This document shows positions 1 to 40,232 of a stretch of 64,000 nt of DNA, one piece after another (the first letter of the stretch is position 1; each line of letters opens with the position of its first letter). The stretch is from contig CAZOYW010000002.1 of assembly GCA_964584165.1 (NCBI GenBank), forward strand, positions 35,488-99,487, written 5' to 3'. The notes under the pieces were generated by a model. It was given only the letters and a program-made list of their open reading frames with translations. It was not told the origin of the DNA and did not search any database. Source of the DNA: an uncultured bacterium. Its GTDB lineage: Bacteria; Auribacterota; Erginobacteria; Erginobacterales; CAZKCI01. A program made the position numbers and the translations under genes.

Positions 1-633
1 GAGGTCCGCCCCGCCCTCGCCGCGGCCGGGTGGGAGTTCGTCTCGGAGACGCCCACGGCGCTCAAGTTCTCCCGCCCCGGGGCGGGGCGGTTCCGGGCTT
101 TCCTCGAGGTTCACACCGATCTCCAGGCGCCCTCCCGGAGGAACCCCGCCTTCTCGATCCGGATCTCCGATTTCTGGGAGACGAGCCGGGCCGATTCGGT
201 CGCCGGCGTCCCGGTCCGGGCGCTTTCGGCCGAGACCGAGGCCTTCTACCTCGCCGCTCACGCCGGTCACCACGGCTTCTCCCGCCTGATCTGGCTCTAC
301 GACCTCGACCGGATCGCCGCCCGGGGCGAGCTGAGCTGGGAAGGCGCCGCTCTTCTGGCGGTGGCCGCCCGCTCCGCGACACCGGTCTGGCTTGCCCTCT
401 TGCGCACGCGAGAATTCTTCGGGAGCGCGATCCCGGCGGCGGCACTGGAGATGCTGGCGCCCGCGCGCCACCGGAGGATCGTTCTCGAGGGGCTTTTCCC
501 CGCCCGGCGGTTCCTGGAGGGGGAGGCGGAAAGGGAGAGAGGGCTCACCCTTCTCGATCGGTTCGCCCTGAACGACCGGTGGGGAGAGGCGCTGCGGTCG
601 TTTCTCCTCCACTTCCCCGCCCGCCCGGGCTAG
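1..633 (+). CDS. Nucleotidyltransferase-family protein (PF14907/NTP_transf_5-like), C-terminal part; the 5' end lies outside the window
   Basis: Frame 1 is open from base 1 to the TAG at 631-633. The translation ...FYLAAHAGHHGFSRLIWLYDLDRIA... matches the hallmark of the 'uncharacterised nucleotidyltransferase' family that typically sits next to PqqD-like genes. The track's 30..638 ORF is in a different frame and is an artefact. Confidence 0.55.
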   Translation, partial: EVRPALAAAGWEFVSETPTALKFSRPGAGRFRAFLEVHTDLQAPSRRNPAFSIRISDFWETSRADSVAGVPVRALSAETEAFYLAAHAGHHGFSRLIWLYDLDRIAARGELSWEGAALLAVAARSATPVWLALLRTREFFGSAIPAAALEMLAPARHRRIVLEGLFPARRFLEGEAERERGLTLLDRFALNDRWGEALRSFLLHFPARPG

Positions 634-793
634 GTTAAAAGGTCGGGATTGCTCGCCGGCGAGGAGCTTTCAGAATGGTTGACGACGACACTGGAATTAG
701 TTAGTTTGATCGCAGTTCGCGCCTCTGATCAGCCAAGGGGGCGAGCGGCAGTGCGCAAACTAAAGCTCTCCGCCGGAATGCACGGCCTATCCA

Positions 794-910
794 CGTAACC
801 TTACGTAACCTTTTCTGCGTAACCTTACGTAACCTTTTCGACGTAACCTTTCCTGCGTAACCTTACGTAACCTTTTCGACGTAACCTTTCCTACGTAACC
901 TTACGTAACT
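794..910. repeat. About 11 tandem copies of the 10-mer (A)CGTAACCTT, forming four perfect TTACGTAA palindromes, directly upstream of the PqqD start
   Basis: Read directly: cgtaaccttacgtaaccttttctgcgtaaccttacgtaaccttttcgacgtaacctttcctg..., a higher-order ~38-bp unit repeated about 3 times, ending 6 nt before the ATG at 917. Confidence 0.9.
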
Positions 911-916
911 TTTTAT

Positions 917-1213
917 ATGCCCTCCTCTCCGGTCTACCGCCGCTCCCCCGGCGTCGTCTTCCGTTCGATCGCCGGAGAGACGCTCCTCGTCCCCGCCTCC
1001 GGGAAGGCGGCGGCGGTCGGGAGGCTTTTCACACTGAACGAGACCGGAGCCTTCGTCTGGGGGAGGATCGACGGGAAAAGGAGCGCGGAGGCGATCGCCC
1101 GGGAGCTTAGGGCGGAATACCGAGTCGGGGAGGAGGAGGCCCGCGCCGACGTCGCCGAGCTCCTGGAAAGGCTCTGCGCGCTCCGGGCGGTCGAGCGGGC
1201 GGATCGGCCTTAA
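917..1213 (+). CDS. PqqD-family protein (peptide-chaperone / RRE-like)
   Basis: 98 aa. LFTLNETGAFVWGRIDGKRSAEAIARELRAEYRVGEEEARADVAELLERL is the classic PqqD pattern. Its stop overlaps the convergent GT4 stop. Confidence 0.75.
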   Translation: MPSSPVYRRSPGVVFRSIAGETLLVPASGKAAAVGRLFTLNETGAFVWGRIDGKRSAEAIARELRAEYRVGEEEARADVAELLERLCALRAVERADRP

Positions 1214-2358
1214 GGGAGGCGCGCGTAGAGTGAGAGGAGCTCCTTCGCCTTCTCCTCCCAGGTGCAGCGCCGCGCGGTCTCCCGTCCGGTCGCTCCCCGC
1301 TCCGGGAGGGTCCCCTCCCGCACCAGCCGGTTCGTCCGCTCGGCGATCTCCGCCTCGTTCTCCGGATGGTCTAGGAGGAACCCCTCCCTCCCCGGCGTGA
1401 TCAGCTCCGCGGAGCCGACCCGCCGGCTGACGATGACCGGGAGGCCGGCGGCCATCGCCTCCAAGGCGGCGGTCCCGAAGGGATCGAAGCGGGCGGGGAG
1501 GACGAAGAGGTCGGAGGCGAAGAAGAGGTCGCGGGCCTCCCGGTAGACCGGCCCCGCGAAGACGACCCGGCGCTCGATCTTAAGTTCGGCGGCGATCCTC
1601 CGGCACCCCCGCGCCCCCCCCGTCCCTCCCACCGCCAGGAGCTTGACCCGGCCATCGATCGCCGGCAGAGCCCGAAGGAGCGCGGGCAGTCCCTTCCGGG
1701 TGAAGTCGTAGCCGACAAAGAGGGCGACGAGGTCGCTCCCGGAGAAGCCGTAGCGCTCCCTGACCCTCCGCCGCCGGGACTCCCGGTCGGGCGGGTTGTA
1801 GAAGGCGTAATCCACTCCGCCGTGGACGGGGACGACGTCTTCCGGGGGACAAGGGTAATATCTCAGGATCTGGCTCTTCTCGAACTCCGACGCCGGGACG
1901 ATCAGGCGGTAGAGGCGGCCGCGGTAGACGCGGTTCTCCAGATAGCGCACCAGAAGATGCTTGGGGGTCTGCTGGGAGAGGAACCCGGCCCAAGATTCCT
2001 TCGCCCGTCCCTCCATCACCGCCTTCTGGCACATCAGCTGGGAGATCAGGAGGGACTTCGAGGAGGCCAGGCCGTTGTAGAGATGAAGGATCTCGTTCTC
2101 TCCCGCGATTGTTCGGCAGAGGCGTCCGACGCTGATATAGTTGGCGAGGATACGCAGCGGAAAAAAGAAATGCGCCGGCCAATTGCCTCGAGGGAAGAGG
2201 TGATGCATCTCCACGTTCCCGGGGACGACGGGTTCCCAGGAGTTGGCGTAGACGCGGACGCGGTGGGAGGCGGGAATGTTTTTGCAGAGAGACCAGACGG
2301 TGAGTCCGGCGCCGGAAACAGGGCCGAAATGACCGGAGACGATATAGGCGATTCTCAT
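1210..2358 (-). CDS. Glycosyltransferase family 4
   Basis: GT4 motifs (EGLPxxxLEAMAAGLPVIVS). The track ORF is over-extended; the in-frame start MRIAYIVSGHF at 2358 is typical of a GT4 N-terminus. Confidence 0.8.
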   Translation of the reverse strand: MRIAYIVSGHFGPVSGAGLTVWSLCKNIPASHRVRVYANSWEPVVPGNVEMHHLFPRGNWPAHFFFPLRILANYISVGRLCRTIAGENEILHLYNGLASSKSLLISQLMCQKAVMEGRAKESWAGFLSQQTPKHLLVRYLENRVYRGRLYRLIVPASEFEKSQILRYYPCPPEDVVPVHGGVDYAFYNPPDRESRRRRVRERYGFSGSDLVALFVGYDFTRKGLPALLRALPAIDGRVKLLAVGGTGGARGCRRIAAELKIERRVVFAGPVYREARDLFFASDLFVLPARFDPFGTAALEAMAAGLPVIVSRRVGSAELITPGREGFLLDHPENEAEIAERTNRLVREGTLPERGATGRETARRCTWEEKAKELLSLYARLP

Positions 2359-8332: not shown

Positions 8333-9486
8333 CGCCGGGCCTCCCGGTAGAGGGTTTCCAGGCGATCGAGATAAGGCCCGCGGCCGAACCGCACGGAGGC
8401 CTCCCGCCGGGCCGCCTCGCCCAGGCGGCGCCGGAGGGCGGGGTCTCCGATCAGGCGGCGGACCGCTCCGGCGAGGGCCGAGACGGTCTCCGCCTCGGCC
8501 CCGACCTCGACCAGGAGACCGCTCTCTCCGTCCCGGACGGCCGCGCTGAGCCCCCCCACCCGGGAGGCGACCACGGCCTTGCCCGCGGCCATCGCCTCCA
8601 GGCAGGAGATCCCTCCGGCCTCGCGCCGGGAGGGGACGACCACGATGTCGACGGCGCGGAGGTAGGCGGGCACTTTGTCCGAGGCGACAGAGCCTGCGAA
8701 GGCCACCTCCGATCCGATCTCCTGCGCCCGCCGGCGCAGCTCTCCCTCCGCTGCGCCGGTCCCGATGATGAGGTATTTTAAGTCCGCTCCCCCGGCGTGG
8801 AGGCGGCGGGCCATCTCCAGAAAGAGGTCGGCGCCCTTGACCGGATCGAGGCGCCCGAGGAAGGCGACCACCGTTTCCCGCTCCCCCCAGCCCCAGCGCG
8901 CCCGGATATCCCCTCCGCTCCCGTCCGGCCGGAACCGCTCCGCGTCGACGAAGTTGGGAAGGATCTCGATCCTTCCGTCGGGGACGCCGGCCGCCCGGAT
9001 CGCCCCCCGGAGCGTCTCGCCCACCCCGATGACCCTTTCCGCCCGCCGCAGGGTCCAGTCCAGGACCGGGCGGAGCCAGTTGACCTCCCGGTTGAGGAGG
9101 AGGGAACTGCCGTGGCAGGTGATCAGGAGCGGGATCCCGGCGCGGAGGCCGGCCAGGGCCCCCGCCGTTCCCGCGGGATACTCCTGGTGGGCGTGGATCA
9201 GGTCGAAGGGATCGCGGCGGTGGAGGCGCAGCGCCCGCCTGGCCGCCCGCAGGGCGTAGAGCTTGTAGCGGAAACGGTAGACGGGGAGGACGGTGTCCAT
9301 CTCGCGGTAGATCGCGATCCCTGCCCGCTCCTCGCGCTCCGGGAAAGCGCGTCCCTGCCAGTTGCGCCACCCGATCAGGGAGACGCGGTGCCCCCGTCCC
9401 TGAAGCCCCCGGGCGAGCTCCCAGACGTGGCTTTCCAGCCCTCCGGTGACGGGAGGGAGCGTGGAGGCGATGAGGCAGAGGTTCAT
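8329..9486 (-). CDS. Glycosyltransferase family 4
   Basis: MNLCLIAST ... EAGGISCLEAMAAGKAVVASRVGG. ATGA overlaps at both ends indicate translational coupling. Confidence 0.8.
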   Translation of the reverse strand: MNLCLIASTLPPVTGGLESHVWELARGLQGRGHRVSLIGWRNWQGRAFPEREERAGIAIYREMDTVLPVYRFRYKLYALRAARRALRLHRRDPFDLIHAHQEYPAGTAGALAGLRAGIPLLITCHGSSLLLNREVNWLRPVLDWTLRRAERVIGVGETLRGAIRAAGVPDGRIEILPNFVDAERFRPDGSGGDIRARWGWGERETVVAFLGRLDPVKGADLFLEMARRLHAGGADLKYLIIGTGAAEGELRRRAQEIGSEVAFAGSVASDKVPAYLRAVDIVVVPSRREAGGISCLEAMAAGKAVVASRVGGLSAAVRDGESGLLVEVGAEAETVSALAGAVRRLIGDPALRRRLGEAARREASVRFGRGPYLDRLETLYREARR

Positions 9487-31257: not shown

Positions 31258-32694
31258 TTGTCCATGCATAAGCGCATCGTCAGGGCCTACATCGCCGTTG
31301 ACGCCGTCGGCCTTCTTCTGGCCTTCTACCTCCCCTACCTCATCCGCTACAACAGCGACCGGATCGCTCTGCTCCTCTCCTACCCGGCCGGCCGGATCAT
31401 CAGCAACCTCTGGCTTCCGTCGCTCGGCTCCTACACCACGGTCTACCTCTTCTGGGGGATGACCGCCCTCCTCCTCCTCCAGCACTACCAGCTCTTCGCC
31501 ACTCCCCGCGAGCTCTCCTATCTGGAGGAGACGATCGCCGTTCTCAAGGTCACCTGCTTCTCCTGCCTCCCTGCGGCGGCGGCCGTCTTCTTCCTCCAGA
31601 TCAAGTTCTACTCCCGCCTGGTCTTCGCCTTGAACGCCCTCGCCCTCTTCCTCCTCCTCGCCGCCTGGCGGGCGGCGAAGCGGCGCCTGGTGCGCGCCCG
31701 GGTGGCCCGGGGACACGACAACCTCCGGGTCCTGATCGTCGGGGCGGGGAAGGTGGGGGCGGCGGTGGCCTCCGAGATGGCGCGCCTCCCCTACTTCGGC
31801 TGGGAGGCGGTCGGCTATCTCGACGACCGCGCCCGCGCCGGCCCGTCCGGCCGGCCGGTCCTGGGGACGCTCGCGGAGCTGGAGCCGGTCGCCCGGCAGC
31901 ATTTCATCGACCTGGCGATCGTGACCATCCCCTCGGCCCGGGAGAAGGTTGCCGCCATCCTGGAGACCGCCCGCGCCCTCAAGATCGGCGTCCGGATCGT
32001 CCCCGATCTCCACCAGCTCTCCTCCGAGGAGATCCGCGCCTCCGCGCTCGGGGAGATCCCCCTCCTCGAGTACCACCCCCACCATCCCCACGGGACGGAC
32101 CTGGCGGCGAAGAGGGCCTTCGACCTGATTTTCTCCGGCCTTCTCCTCCTGTTCCTTCTCCCCTGCCTGCCCGTCCTCGTCCTCCTGATCAAGCGCGACA
32201 GCCCGGGGCCGGTCTTCTACGTCTCCCGCCGCTGCGGCAAGAACGGGCGGGTCTTCAGCTTCTTCAAGTTCCGGACCATGGTCCCGGGGGCGGAGGCGAT
32301 GCTCGACTCCCTCCAGGCGGAGAACGAGTCCGACGGGCCGGTCTTCAAGATGAAGAACGATCCCAGGGTGACGCGGGTCGGGCGCCTCCTGCGCCGCTTC
32401 AGCATCGACGAACTCCCCCAGCTCTGGAACGTCTTCCGGGGCGATATGTCCCTGGTCGGCCCCCGCCCGCCCACCCCCGAGGAGGTGAAGCGGTACAGCG
32501 ATCGCCAGCTCCGGCGCCTGGAAATCCGCCCCGGGATCACCTGCCTCTGGCAGGTCAAGGGGCGGGCCGACCTCTCCTTCGAGGAGTGGATGAAGTGGGA
32601 CCTTTTCTACATCGAGAACTGGTCCTTCTGGCTGGACCTCCAGATCCTCCTCCTCACGTTGGGGGCGGTGGTGCGGGGGAAGGGAGCGTATTAA
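31258..32694 (+). CDS. Undecaprenyl-phosphate sugar phosphotransferase (WbaP/EPS priming transferase)
   Basis: 4-5 N-terminal TM helices, a Rossmann-fold LIVGAGKVGAAVA, and a C-terminal bacterial sugar-transferase domain (AKRAFDLIFSG ... DELPQLWNVFRGDMSLVGPRP). Confidence 0.9.
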   Translation: MSMHKRIVRAYIAVDAVGLLLAFYLPYLIRYNSDRIALLLSYPAGRIISNLWLPSLGSYTTVYLFWGMTALLLLQHYQLFATPRELSYLEETIAVLKVTCFSCLPAAAAVFFLQIKFYSRLVFALNALALFLLLAAWRAAKRRLVRARVARGHDNLRVLIVGAGKVGAAVASEMARLPYFGWEAVGYLDDRARAGPSGRPVLGTLAELEPVARQHFIDLAIVTIPSAREKVAAILETARALKIGVRIVPDLHQLSSEEIRASALGEIPLLEYHPHHPHGTDLAAKRAFDLIFSGLLLLFLLPCLPVLVLLIKRDSPGPVFYVSRRCGKNGRVFSFFKFRTMVPGAEAMLDSLQAENESDGPVFKMKNDPRVTRVGRLLRRFSIDELPQLWNVFRGDMSLVGPRPPTPEEVKRYSDRQLRRLEIRPGITCLWQVKGRADLSFEEWMKWDLFYIENWSFWLDLQILLLTLGAVVRGKGAY

Positions 32695-32699
32695 AAAAA

Positions 32700-32748
32700 G
32701 TTACGTAAGGTTACGCAAGGTTATGTAAGGTTACGTAAGGTTACGGAA
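32700..32748. repeat. Five tandem 10-mers (G)TTACGTAAGG (the reverse complement of the 794-910 repeat) at exact 10-bp phase, abutting the radical SAM start codon
   Basis: gttacgtaaggttacgcaaggttatgtaaggttacgtaaggttacggaatATG; palindromic cores TTACGTAA / TTACGCAA / TTATGTAA / TTACGTAA / TTACGGAA. Confidence 0.9.
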
Positions 32749-32749
32749 T

Positions 32750-33733
32750 ATGGAAGCCGCGATCGTCGTCACCTACCGTTGCAACGCCCGCTGCGCGATG
32801 TGCGGGACCTGGCGGCACCCCTCCCGGCGGGAGGAGGAGTTCGCCCCGGAGCTCCTCCGGAAGCTCCCGCCGCTTGCCTTCGCCAACGTCACGGGCGGGG
32901 AGCCTTTCCTGCGGGAGGATCTCGCCGAGATCGTCTCCATCCTCTCCGGGCGCTCCTCCCGGGTGGTGATCAGCACCAACGGGTTCTTCACCGACCGGAT
33001 CATAGCCCTCTCGGACCGGTTTCCCTCCGTCGGCGTCCGGATCAGCCTGGAGGGCCTGCCCGCCGCCAACGACGAGCTCCGGGGGCTTAAAGACGGCTTC
33101 GACCACGGCCTGCGCACGCTTCTCGAGCTCCGTAGGCTCGGCCGGCGGGACATCGGCTTCGGGATCACCGTCTCCGACCGGAACGCCTCCGACCTGCTCG
33201 AGCTCTTCGAGCTGGCCCGGTCGATGCGGCTCGAGTTCGCCACCGCCGTCGTCCACAACTCCTATTATTTTCACAAGCAGGACAACGCGATCCGTGACCC
33301 GGATCATGTGATCCGGTGTTTCGAGGAGCTTGTCCGGCGGCTCCTCGGGAGCCGCCGGATCAAGGAGTGGTTCCGGGCCTACTTCAACCGCGGCCTGATC
33401 AACTACGTCCGGGGGCGCCCGCGCCTCCTCCCCTGCGCCGCCGGGGAGGACATGTTCTTCCTCGACCCCGCGGGCGAGGTCCGCCCCTGCAACGGCCTCC
33501 CCGAGGAGTCCGAGGAGACCAGCCTGGGGAACCTGAAGCGCGCCTCGTTCGAGGAGATCTGGCAGGGGGAGCGGGCGCGCGCGATCCGGGAGCGGTTGCG
33601 CTCCTGCCCCCGCAACTGCTGGATGATCGGGACCGCCGCCCCGGCGATGAAGAAGGATCTCATCCGGCCCCTGCGCTGGATCGCCCGGAACAAGATCCGT
33701 CTGGCGCTAGGGAAAGAGCTGGAGGAGATGTAG
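32750..33733 (+). CDS. Radical SAM protein with a C-terminal SPASM/twitch-like Cys cluster
   Basis: VVTYRCNARCAMCG is the CxxxCxxC motif. The C-terminal CAAGEDMFFLDPAGEVRPCNGL ... CPRNCW provides auxiliary-cluster cysteines. 327 aa. Confidence 0.75.
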   Translation: MEAAIVVTYRCNARCAMCGTWRHPSRREEEFAPELLRKLPPLAFANVTGGEPFLREDLAEIVSILSGRSSRVVISTNGFFTDRIIALSDRFPSVGVRISLEGLPAANDELRGLKDGFDHGLRTLLELRRLGRRDIGFGITVSDRNASDLLELFELARSMRLEFATAVVHNSYYFHKQDNAIRDPDHVIRCFEELVRRLLGSRRIKEWFRAYFNRGLINYVRGRPRLLPCAAGEDMFFLDPAGEVRPCNGLPEESEETSLGNLKRASFEEIWQGERARAIRERLRSCPRNCWMIGTAAPAMKKDLIRPLRWIARNKIRLALGKELEEM

Positions 33734-39922: not shown

Positions 39923-40232
39923 CTCTTCTCCTCCCGCGGCCGTTCGCCGCGGGCTGCGGTTGGTCGGGAAGATCGCGCCAACGGGGGCAAAACAAAGCCC
40001 CCCGGGCAGAGCACGGAGGGCGACGCGATCCTTTTCCCTACGCCGGCATTACCCGGATCAGGTCCGTCGGGTCTTCCGCTCCCCGCGGAACTCTCAGGCC
40101 GTGGCACGACCTCCCCGTGGTCGTCCCAGTCTCGAGGCAACCGGTCGTTGCTGTCAAGCCCAATCCCCCGGGATGTCTCCCCAATCCCTCGGCCCTAGCG
40201 TTGAGCATTTTCCCCGGTCGGGCATGAGACAC

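Follow-up and report, generated by a model that had tools for sequence, protein, structure and literature searches.

A window-edge nucleotidyltransferase and PqqD as distal genes of a conserved cassette with a candidate radical-SAM peptide precursor

Which pathway is served by a nucleotidyltransferase gene and a PqqD-family gene that lie next to each other at the edge of a bacterial polysaccharide locus? The two genes occupy positions 1-1213 of a 64-kb stretch of DNA from an uncultured bacterium (hereafter the window, to which coordinates refer unless they carry an L number). A first reading of this DNA, made from the sequence only, had assigned them to an uncharacterised nucleotidyltransferase family (PF14907) and to PqqD, and had suggested an "HPr-rel-A"-type system with partner genes beyond the window. 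We find that they almost certainly form the distal end of a conserved operon-like cassette of seven genes, ordered [WecA-like]-radical S-adenosylmethionine (SAM)/SPASM enzyme-peptide-ScmC-like protein-Ser-Lys peptidase-C25 peptidase-PF14907 nucleotidyltransferase-PqqD. Four components that the first reading did not include, namely the radical-SAM/SPASM enzyme, a Cys-bearing precursor-like open reading frame (ORF), a signal-peptidase-like protein and a PorU-like C25 peptidase, point to a radical-SAM peptide-maturation cassette, and we consider it probable that the cassette is a pathway of this kind in which PqqD serves as the chaperone. The earlier interpretation as a whole is partly supported.

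The seven-gene cassette and its distribution

Frame 1 of positions 1-633 is open up to a TAG at 631-633 and contains AAHAGHHGFSRLIWLYDLD, the signature from which the sequence-only reading had recognised the nucleotidyltransferase. A hidden Markov model search bears this assignment out: the segment matches PF14907 (NTP_transf_5) with E=3.1e-17 and 63.4 bits (cut-off 31.2), and the match is confined to positions 110-249 of the 249-position profile, which identifies it as the C-terminal portion of a gene that the edge of the window truncates. The identification of the next gene as PqqD holds as well (Table 1), and both matches are much stronger than chance would give. An exact-sequence look-up located the PqqD protein on 19 public contigs. 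From its position 9085 onwards, L001, a 163-kb ENA scaffold, differs from the window by 6 mismatches in 11,213 bases and thus comes from the same population and provides a valid extension upstream of the window (window coordinate = L001 coordinate minus 9084). The partner genes do lie off the window, upstream, as L001 shows. Partner protein sequences were taken from L002, a strain variant of the same lineage as the window, whose nucleotidyltransferase shares 99% identity with the database representative P0001. On the right-hand side, the cassette is bounded by a convergent glycosyltransferase gene the stop codon of which overlaps that of PqqD by 4 bases; past this gene, there is a polysaccharide locus with methyltransferases, a GDSL-like protein, a Wzx-type flippase and Wzy_C proteins.

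The order radical SAM-peptide-ScmC-like-Ser-Lys peptidase-C25-PF14907-PqqD recurs in nine lineages (L001/L002; L011/L012/L019; L014; L015 and L020, two contigs of one metagenome-assembled genome; L022/L023; L024; L025; L032/L033; and L034/L035). The cassette proteins are 30-78% identical between lineages, and the G+C content of the loci ranges from 0.49 to 0.68. Of the eight lineages for which upstream DNA is available, seven have a WecA-like gene immediately 5' of the radical-SAM gene, the exception being L014, and PMT_2 genes are found nearby in four lineages. The submitters labelled two members as Candidatus Auribacterota/Aureabacteria and one as "Proteobacteria".

The cassette is rare. A search with a 4-sequence alignment found only 2 GTDB species representatives that carry it (the same search also gave one weak, unrelated match in Actinokineospora), and an exhaustive HMMER search with the ScmC-like profile gave only about ten 50%-identity representatives with at least 200 bits. 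A literature search found no paper describing the cassette in the collection that it covered, and a looser one returned lasso-peptide papers only. Modules of the toxin-antitoxin type are lodged inside the cassette several times (Table 1), including an MNT/HEPN-like pair in the gap between the C25 and nucleotidyltransferase genes (assigned by sequence motifs), a YgiT/MqsA-like ORF and a PhdYeFM/PIN pair.

Table 1. Positions of the cassette genes, the neighbouring features and the inserted modules (window coordinates unless an L number is given; aa, amino acids)
Feature	Position	Strand	Remarks
PMT_2 glycosyltransferase	L001 1-1530	+	
WecA-like Glycos_transf_4	L001 1592-2677	+	
Radical-SAM enzyme	L001 2718-3869	+	
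55-aa ORF (candidate precursor peptide)	L001 3829-3996	+	
289-aa ORF (HprK/PEPCK-fold, ScmC-like)	L001 4194-5063	+	no Pfam match
164-aa ORF (Ser-Lys peptidase)	L001 5060-5554	+	no Pfam match
Peptidase_C25	L001 5661-8504	+	
PF14907 nucleotidyltransferase, complete gene	L001 8584-9717	+	377 codons; start ~500 bases before the window
PF14907 nucleotidyltransferase, 3' part	1-633	+	210 codons + stop; PF14907 match
Spacer, non-repetitive part	634-792		
Decamer array, ten tandem [AG]CGTAAC[CT]TT	793-912	+	core palindrome TTACGTAA
PqqD-family gene, 98 aa, last cassette gene	917-1213 (L001 10001-10297)	+	PF05402, E=3.8e-18, 66 bits (cut-off 23.4)
Group-1 glycosyltransferase, convergent	1210-2358	-	382-aa gene call; Glycos_transf_1, 93.7 bits
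Toxin-antitoxin-type modules in cassettes	L020 587-1292; L022 16220-16712; L025 10149-10854; L014 4626-4847; L032 16014-16710		

The candidate precursor peptide family and its partner proteins

In every cassette, an ORF of 50-55 codons starts 30-40 bases before the stop codon of the radical-SAM gene, and a Shine-Dalgarno-like sequence is present upstream of most of the copies; the sequence of the candidate precursor is MPADKRKRRYLRPEVKVVDLSFTRSLLGICHTHTVTFPATLPIVTCVMSGCETHP. A profile search of 5.8 billion proteins recovered nine clusters of this peptide and nothing else, and with the loci included the family comes to 14 different sequences. They share the consensus M-(K/R-rich)-Y-x-[KR]-P-E-[IVL]-K-x-x-[ED]-L-x-F-x5-x-x-C-H-[TS]...P...C-x-x-x-x-C, with M1, K7, Y10, P13, E14, K16, L20, F22, C30, H31, P42, C46 and C51 invariant in a 7-sequence alignment, and the C-terminal residue is P, Q, S or T. 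In its leader part, the peptide seems to follow the pattern aromatic-x-[KR]-P-x-hydrophobic that is familiar from the leaders of PqqA and of lasso peptides. Comparison of the peptide genes of L002 and L011 reveals 21 synonymous and 7 nonsynonymous codon differences, indicating purifying selection.

The conservation of this small ORF under purifying selection and its translational coupling to the radical-SAM gene argue against the alternative that the cassette tailors a polysaccharide, a lipid-linked glycan or a surface protein, with the kinase-like protein and the nucleotidyltransferase acting on sugars and PqqD chaperoning something else. The L014 cassette, which has no upstream WecA-like gene, and the known role of PqqD proteins as peptide chaperones speak against it as well. 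Glycan tailoring is favoured by the position of the WecA-like gene directly before the radical-SAM gene in the other lineages, by the PMT_2 genes and flippases in the vicinity, by the match of the nucleotidyltransferase to the fold of FKRP, and by the fact that the window has another radical-SAM/SPASM gene which likewise follows a priming sugar transferase, and yet we consider it unlikely.

In the radical-SAM enzyme, the CxxxCxxC motif (C50, C54, C57) and seven SPASM cysteines (C267, C285, C322, C325, C331, C334 and C353) are invariant in 6 orthologues. N-terminal to the core there are about 40 variable residues and no more, too few to hold a fused peptide-recognition domain. The best NCBIfam matches, all far below cut-off, are NirJ2, StsB, AhbD, GeoRSP, mycofactocin, ScmE and PqqE; the StsB match (99 bits) spans residues 46-357 of 383 aa, and a PapB match is found in L014. 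By alignment span, the nearest radical-SAM relatives are the maturases of sactipeptides and ranthipeptides (AlbA, StsB, PapB, CteB), in which a SPASM radical-SAM enzyme likewise adjoins a short Cys-bearing precursor, with scores far below cut-off. These maturases usually carry a fused N-terminal recognition domain, whereas in the cassette the recognition domain would be a separate PqqD, and the accessory gene set has not been reported for those classes.

PqqD is always the final gene of the cassette, and orthologues with 40-74% identity close it in L011, L020, L022, L024, L025 and L034. Its distance from the upstream gene varies from 80 bases in L011 to 283 in the window and ~0.5-0.6 kb in L022/L024, and in the L032/L034 clade a 578-aa membrane protein gene (L034 7035-8771; L032 16707-18194), the product of which has a weak match to the sulfatase/alkaline-phosphatase superfamily (22 bits, cut-off 25), separates it from the nucleotidyltransferase. 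The protein does not reach the cut-off of any of the PqqD subfamily models for lasso, PQQ, ScmD, GeoRSP and HPr-rel-A; the best NCBIfam match is the lasso PqqD family (43.8 bits, cut-off 70), the scores on TIGR03859 of pyrroloquinoline quinone (PQQ) biosynthesis and on TIGR04353 of the HPr-rel-A system are 32.4 bits (cut-off 46) and 18.2 bits (cut-off 35), and the L020 orthologue has no match to TIGR04353 at E<=0.01. We propose that this PqqD is a stand-alone leader-peptide-binding chaperone, i.e. a predicted RiPP recognition element (RRE). The working model is PqqD/PqqE, where a stand-alone PqqD partners a radical-SAM/SPASM enzyme that has no peptide-binding domain of its own; the cassette differs in its precursor, in the lack of PqqB/C/F and in scores below cut-off. 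Production of the PQQ cofactor itself has, in our judgement, practically no chance of being the function of the cassette: the PqqD family match speaks for it, but the PqqE score is 70.9 bits against a cut-off of 381, there is no pqqB or pqqC, and the peptide does not contain the Glu-x3-Tyr motif of PqqA. The sequence-only reading had already set PQQ biosynthesis aside, and correctly so, as no pqqA, pqqB, pqqC or pqqE gene occurs within 10 kb on either side, upstream extension included.

The 289-aa protein matches the HPr kinase/phosphorylase or PEPCK fold and retains the P-loop; we denote it ScmC-like on the basis of precomputed PF27840 (ScmC) matches in several lineages, the NCBIfam results and the fold. 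The same gene bears on the suggestion of an HPr-rel-A system, which consists of HprK-related kinases A and B and a PqqD-family chaperone. The expected HprK-related kinases were found in part, given that one HprK-fold gene lies upstream and its best NCBIfam match in the window lineage is HprK_rel_A, and an HprK-related P-loop protein together with a PqqD-family protein is indeed what the two systems share. There is, however, a single kinase-like gene and no A/B pair, the scores against TIGR04352 (20.6 bits) and TIGR04355 (16.8 bits) are far below the cut-offs of 200 (19.5 bits in L014), TIGR04353 fails too, and the radical-SAM enzyme, the precursor and the two peptidases are not named in the models of that system. 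The cassette is therefore very unlikely to be an HPr-rel-A system, and this part of the earlier interpretation is not upheld.

By component types, the closest curated relative is the SynChlorMet (Scm) system (TIGR04248-04251), which shares ScmC-like, PqqD (ScmD-like) and PqqE-like radical-SAM/SPASM components with the cassette. A diverged Scm orthologue making the same product would also account for the PF27840 matches and for the weak ScmC, ScmD, ScmE and ScmF matches, but these remain at 14.7/27.6 bits for ScmC (cut-off 125), 31.3/30.5 for ScmD (100), 81.7/84.3 for ScmE and 59/60.6 for ScmF (400 each), the cassette has one radical-SAM gene and not two, and it contains three extra conserved genes (C25, Ser-Lys peptidase and nucleotidyltransferase), so that we regard orthology as quite unlikely. 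The cassette, in addition, has an identifiable precursor family; to our knowledge, none has been identified for Scm, according to the TIGRFAMs description.

The ScmC-like profile reaches far beyond the cassette, with 13,524 representatives in the exhaustive HMMER search when the threshold is E<=1e-3 and 6,562 when it is E<=1e-10. A large sister family (P0053-P0192) of ~290-aa HprK/PEPCK-fold proteins scores ~130-158 bits; ten sampled members failed every NCBIfam cut-off, and one member, P0182 (652 aa), carries a fused methyltransferase domain.

Two peptidases are encoded between the ScmC-like gene and the nucleotidyltransferase gene. The 164-aa protein is a Ser-Lys peptidase (S24/S26, signal-peptidase-like) with G-x-S-M-H-P-F and K-G-D motifs that are invariant in 7 orthologues; the L014 orthologue scores 47 bits against archaeal-type signal peptidase I (cut-off 51.85). 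A functional link between this peptidase and the ScmC-like protein is supported by L018 (5164-6939), where a 54-aa Cys-containing ORF of another kind precedes a 441-aa protein in which ScmC-like and Ser-Lys-peptidase-like parts are fused, with PqqD next in order. This locus looks like a minimal relative of the cassette, and the available L018 DNA is without radical-SAM, C25 and PF14907 genes. The second enzyme, of 950 aa, is a C25 peptidase (262.8 bits on Pfam, above threshold) with an invariant His/Cys dyad (H820 and C854) and a hydrophobic, signal-like N-terminus. It resembles PorU, the C25 sortase of type IX secretion, in matching the model NF033707 over ~690 residues (243.9 bits; 227 in L014) with the dyad intact, but the score does not reach the cut-off of 420, none of the loci examined showed type IX secretion genes, and by submitter label two cassette members are Auribacterota (PVC group) and one is from Proteobacteria.

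The full-length nucleotidyltransferase of 377 aa (from L002) matches PF14907 with 146.9 bits and combines a pol-beta-like nucleotidyltransferase fold with an acidic metal-binding DxD motif. The second-best fold match is 4xje, which has an ANT(2'')-like fold, and the ribitol-phosphate transferase FKRP is also among the matches. The neighbourhood of P0008, a PF14907+PF13471 fusion protein, contains no peptide cluster.

A precedent for the pairing of such an enzyme with a kinase comes from lasso peptides. In the pseudomycoidin system, PsmK, an HprK-family kinase, phosphorylates the lasso precursor, and PsmN, which shows limited homology to 4xje and is placed in "a family of uncharacterized nucleotidyltransferases", then attaches one or two hexose units to that phosphate; the D134A/D136A (DxD) mutant of PsmN is inactive. 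The cassette resembles PadeK/PsmK and PsmN in pairing an HprK-family kinase with a nucleotidyltransferase whose fold is ANT(2'')-like and which has the DxD motif that is essential in PsmN, and in having this pair next to a PqqD-type chaperone and a precursor made on the ribosome. The differences are that the core enzyme of the cassette is a radical-SAM/SPASM protein, that its kinase-like protein belongs to the ScmC branch, and that there is no C-terminal Ser. That the cassette itself is a phosphorylated or glycosylated lasso cluster (paeninodin- or pseudomycoidin-like) is extremely unlikely, despite the kinase and nucleotidyltransferase pair known from such clusters and the best PqqD match, which is under its cut-off: the peptides show no ring-forming Asp/Glu pattern, and neither an Asn-synthetase-like cyclase nor a transglutaminase-like B2 protein was detected within 10 kb in the nine lineages by Pfam calls and tblastn maps.

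The spacer, the decamer arrays and other window features

In the window, the nucleotidyltransferase and PqqD genes are separated by a 283-bp spacer (634-916), on which the sequence-only reading had not commented; its G+C content is 0.50 versus 0.68 for the window, and it has no counterpart in related cassettes. A scan of the spacer detected no promoter-like or terminator-like site, an inverted-repeat search gave nothing there, no Rfam RNA family matched positions 1-1213, and the PqqD start codon is not preceded by any visible Shine-Dalgarno-like sequence. Given that related cassettes have no such spacer, we regard a 49-aa ORF at 649-798 as spurious.

The distal part of the spacer is an array of ten tandem decamers with a spacing of 10/14/14 bases (a 38-bp super-unit), which ends 4 bases before the PqqD ATG; Tandem Repeats Finder reports a period of 38, 2.9 copies and 95% matches for 793-912. 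Seven of the ten decamers are exact copies of ACGTAACCTT, compared with a chance expectation of 0.01 exact matches in the whole window. The copy number upstream of PqqD is ten in the window, L001, L004, L005 and L009, and seven, that is one 38-bp unit fewer, in L002 and L003; four short-read assemblies break within the array. Arrays in the opposite orientation (AAGGTTACGT) are present at L001 8503-8540, in the gap between the C25 and nucleotidyltransferase genes, and at 32697-32746 of the window, so that the nucleotidyltransferase gene is flanked by two arrays in inverted orientation. These three sites are confined to this lineage, and no related cassette has decamer arrays. The arrays may be binding sites for a lineage-specific regulator or a variable spacer.

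The third array, of five copies, is located between a Bac_transf priming sugar transferase gene (31258-32694) and the second radical-SAM/SPASM gene (32750-33733), an arrangement that parallels the WecA-like and radical-SAM genes of the cassette; no partner peptide was identified for this second gene. Elsewhere in the window, there is a TPP (thiamine pyrophosphate) riboswitch at 40018-40125 on the minus strand (58.8 bits, gathering score 54.3).

A proposed peptide pathway and its implications

Taken as a whole, it appears likely that the window-edge pair are the two distal genes of a cassette for a small peptide that is cross-linked by a radical-SAM enzyme and decorated by a kinase-like protein and a nucleotidyltransferase. 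What is established are the protein families and folds, the conserved gene order, the peptide family with its signature of purifying selection and the link to polysaccharide genes; each of the chemical steps we infer. PqqD would bind the leader (Y-x-[KR]-P-E-[IVL]-K-x-x-[ED]-L-x-F) and hand the peptide to the radical-SAM enzyme in the way known for PqqD and PqqE, and the enzyme would then cross-link the core via the three invariant cysteines, probably as thioethers. By analogy with PsmK and PsmN acting on pseudomycoidin, the ScmC-like protein might phosphorylate a hydroxyl of the peptide, whereupon the nucleotidyltransferase would add a hexose or a nucleotide; such phospho-glycosyl tailoring is a tentative suggestion that we rate as somewhat less probable than its absence. 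The leader could be removed by the Ser-Lys peptidase, by the secreted C25 peptidase or by both.

Several observations weigh against this pathway. All the subfamily models (Scm, HPr-rel-A, lasso, GeoRSP, PapB, StsB, PqqE and mycofactocin) score far below cut-off, so function cannot be transferred by orthology. The C-terminal Ser that is the phospho-acceptor in the lasso precedents is absent from the cassette peptides, and we infer the placement of PsmN in PF14907 from its description and from the PF14907+PF13471 fusion. There is no dedicated exporter in the cassette, although the C25 peptidase looks secreted. PqqD is often set apart from the other genes, by 283 bases with repeats in the window, by the wider gaps of L022 and L024 or by the 578-aa gene in L034, so its coupling may be looser than theirs. 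Finally, the type of cross-link is not readable from sequence.

A further possibility, to which we assign a low probability, is that the peptide is not released free but is covalently joined to a lipid-linked or cell-surface glycan. The HprK-fold kinase and the PF14907 transferase might build a phosphodiester link, or the PorU-like C25 peptidase might form the link by transpeptidation. Such conjugation would explain the co-transcription with the WecA-like gene, the constant setting within a Wzx/Wzy locus and the lack of an exporter of its own.

As a radical-SAM peptide pathway, the cassette is of a known general kind; what seems to be new is the discrete recognition protein combined with an unusual accessory set. 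Both PF14907 and the ScmC/HprK-like family are large, and hardly any function has been assigned to their members; for each, the cassette offers a concrete, testable candidate substrate, namely a peptide of 50-55 residues in which the leader is recognisable and three cysteines are invariant. The tailoring pair of kinase and nucleotidyltransferase would extend beyond lasso peptides into a radical-SAM pathway. A peptide-glycan conjugate, if true, would be a new way to decorate the bacterial surface, and even without it the cassette, from a poorly known lineage that is probably Candidatus Auribacterota, still encodes a candidate new family of radical-SAM peptides.

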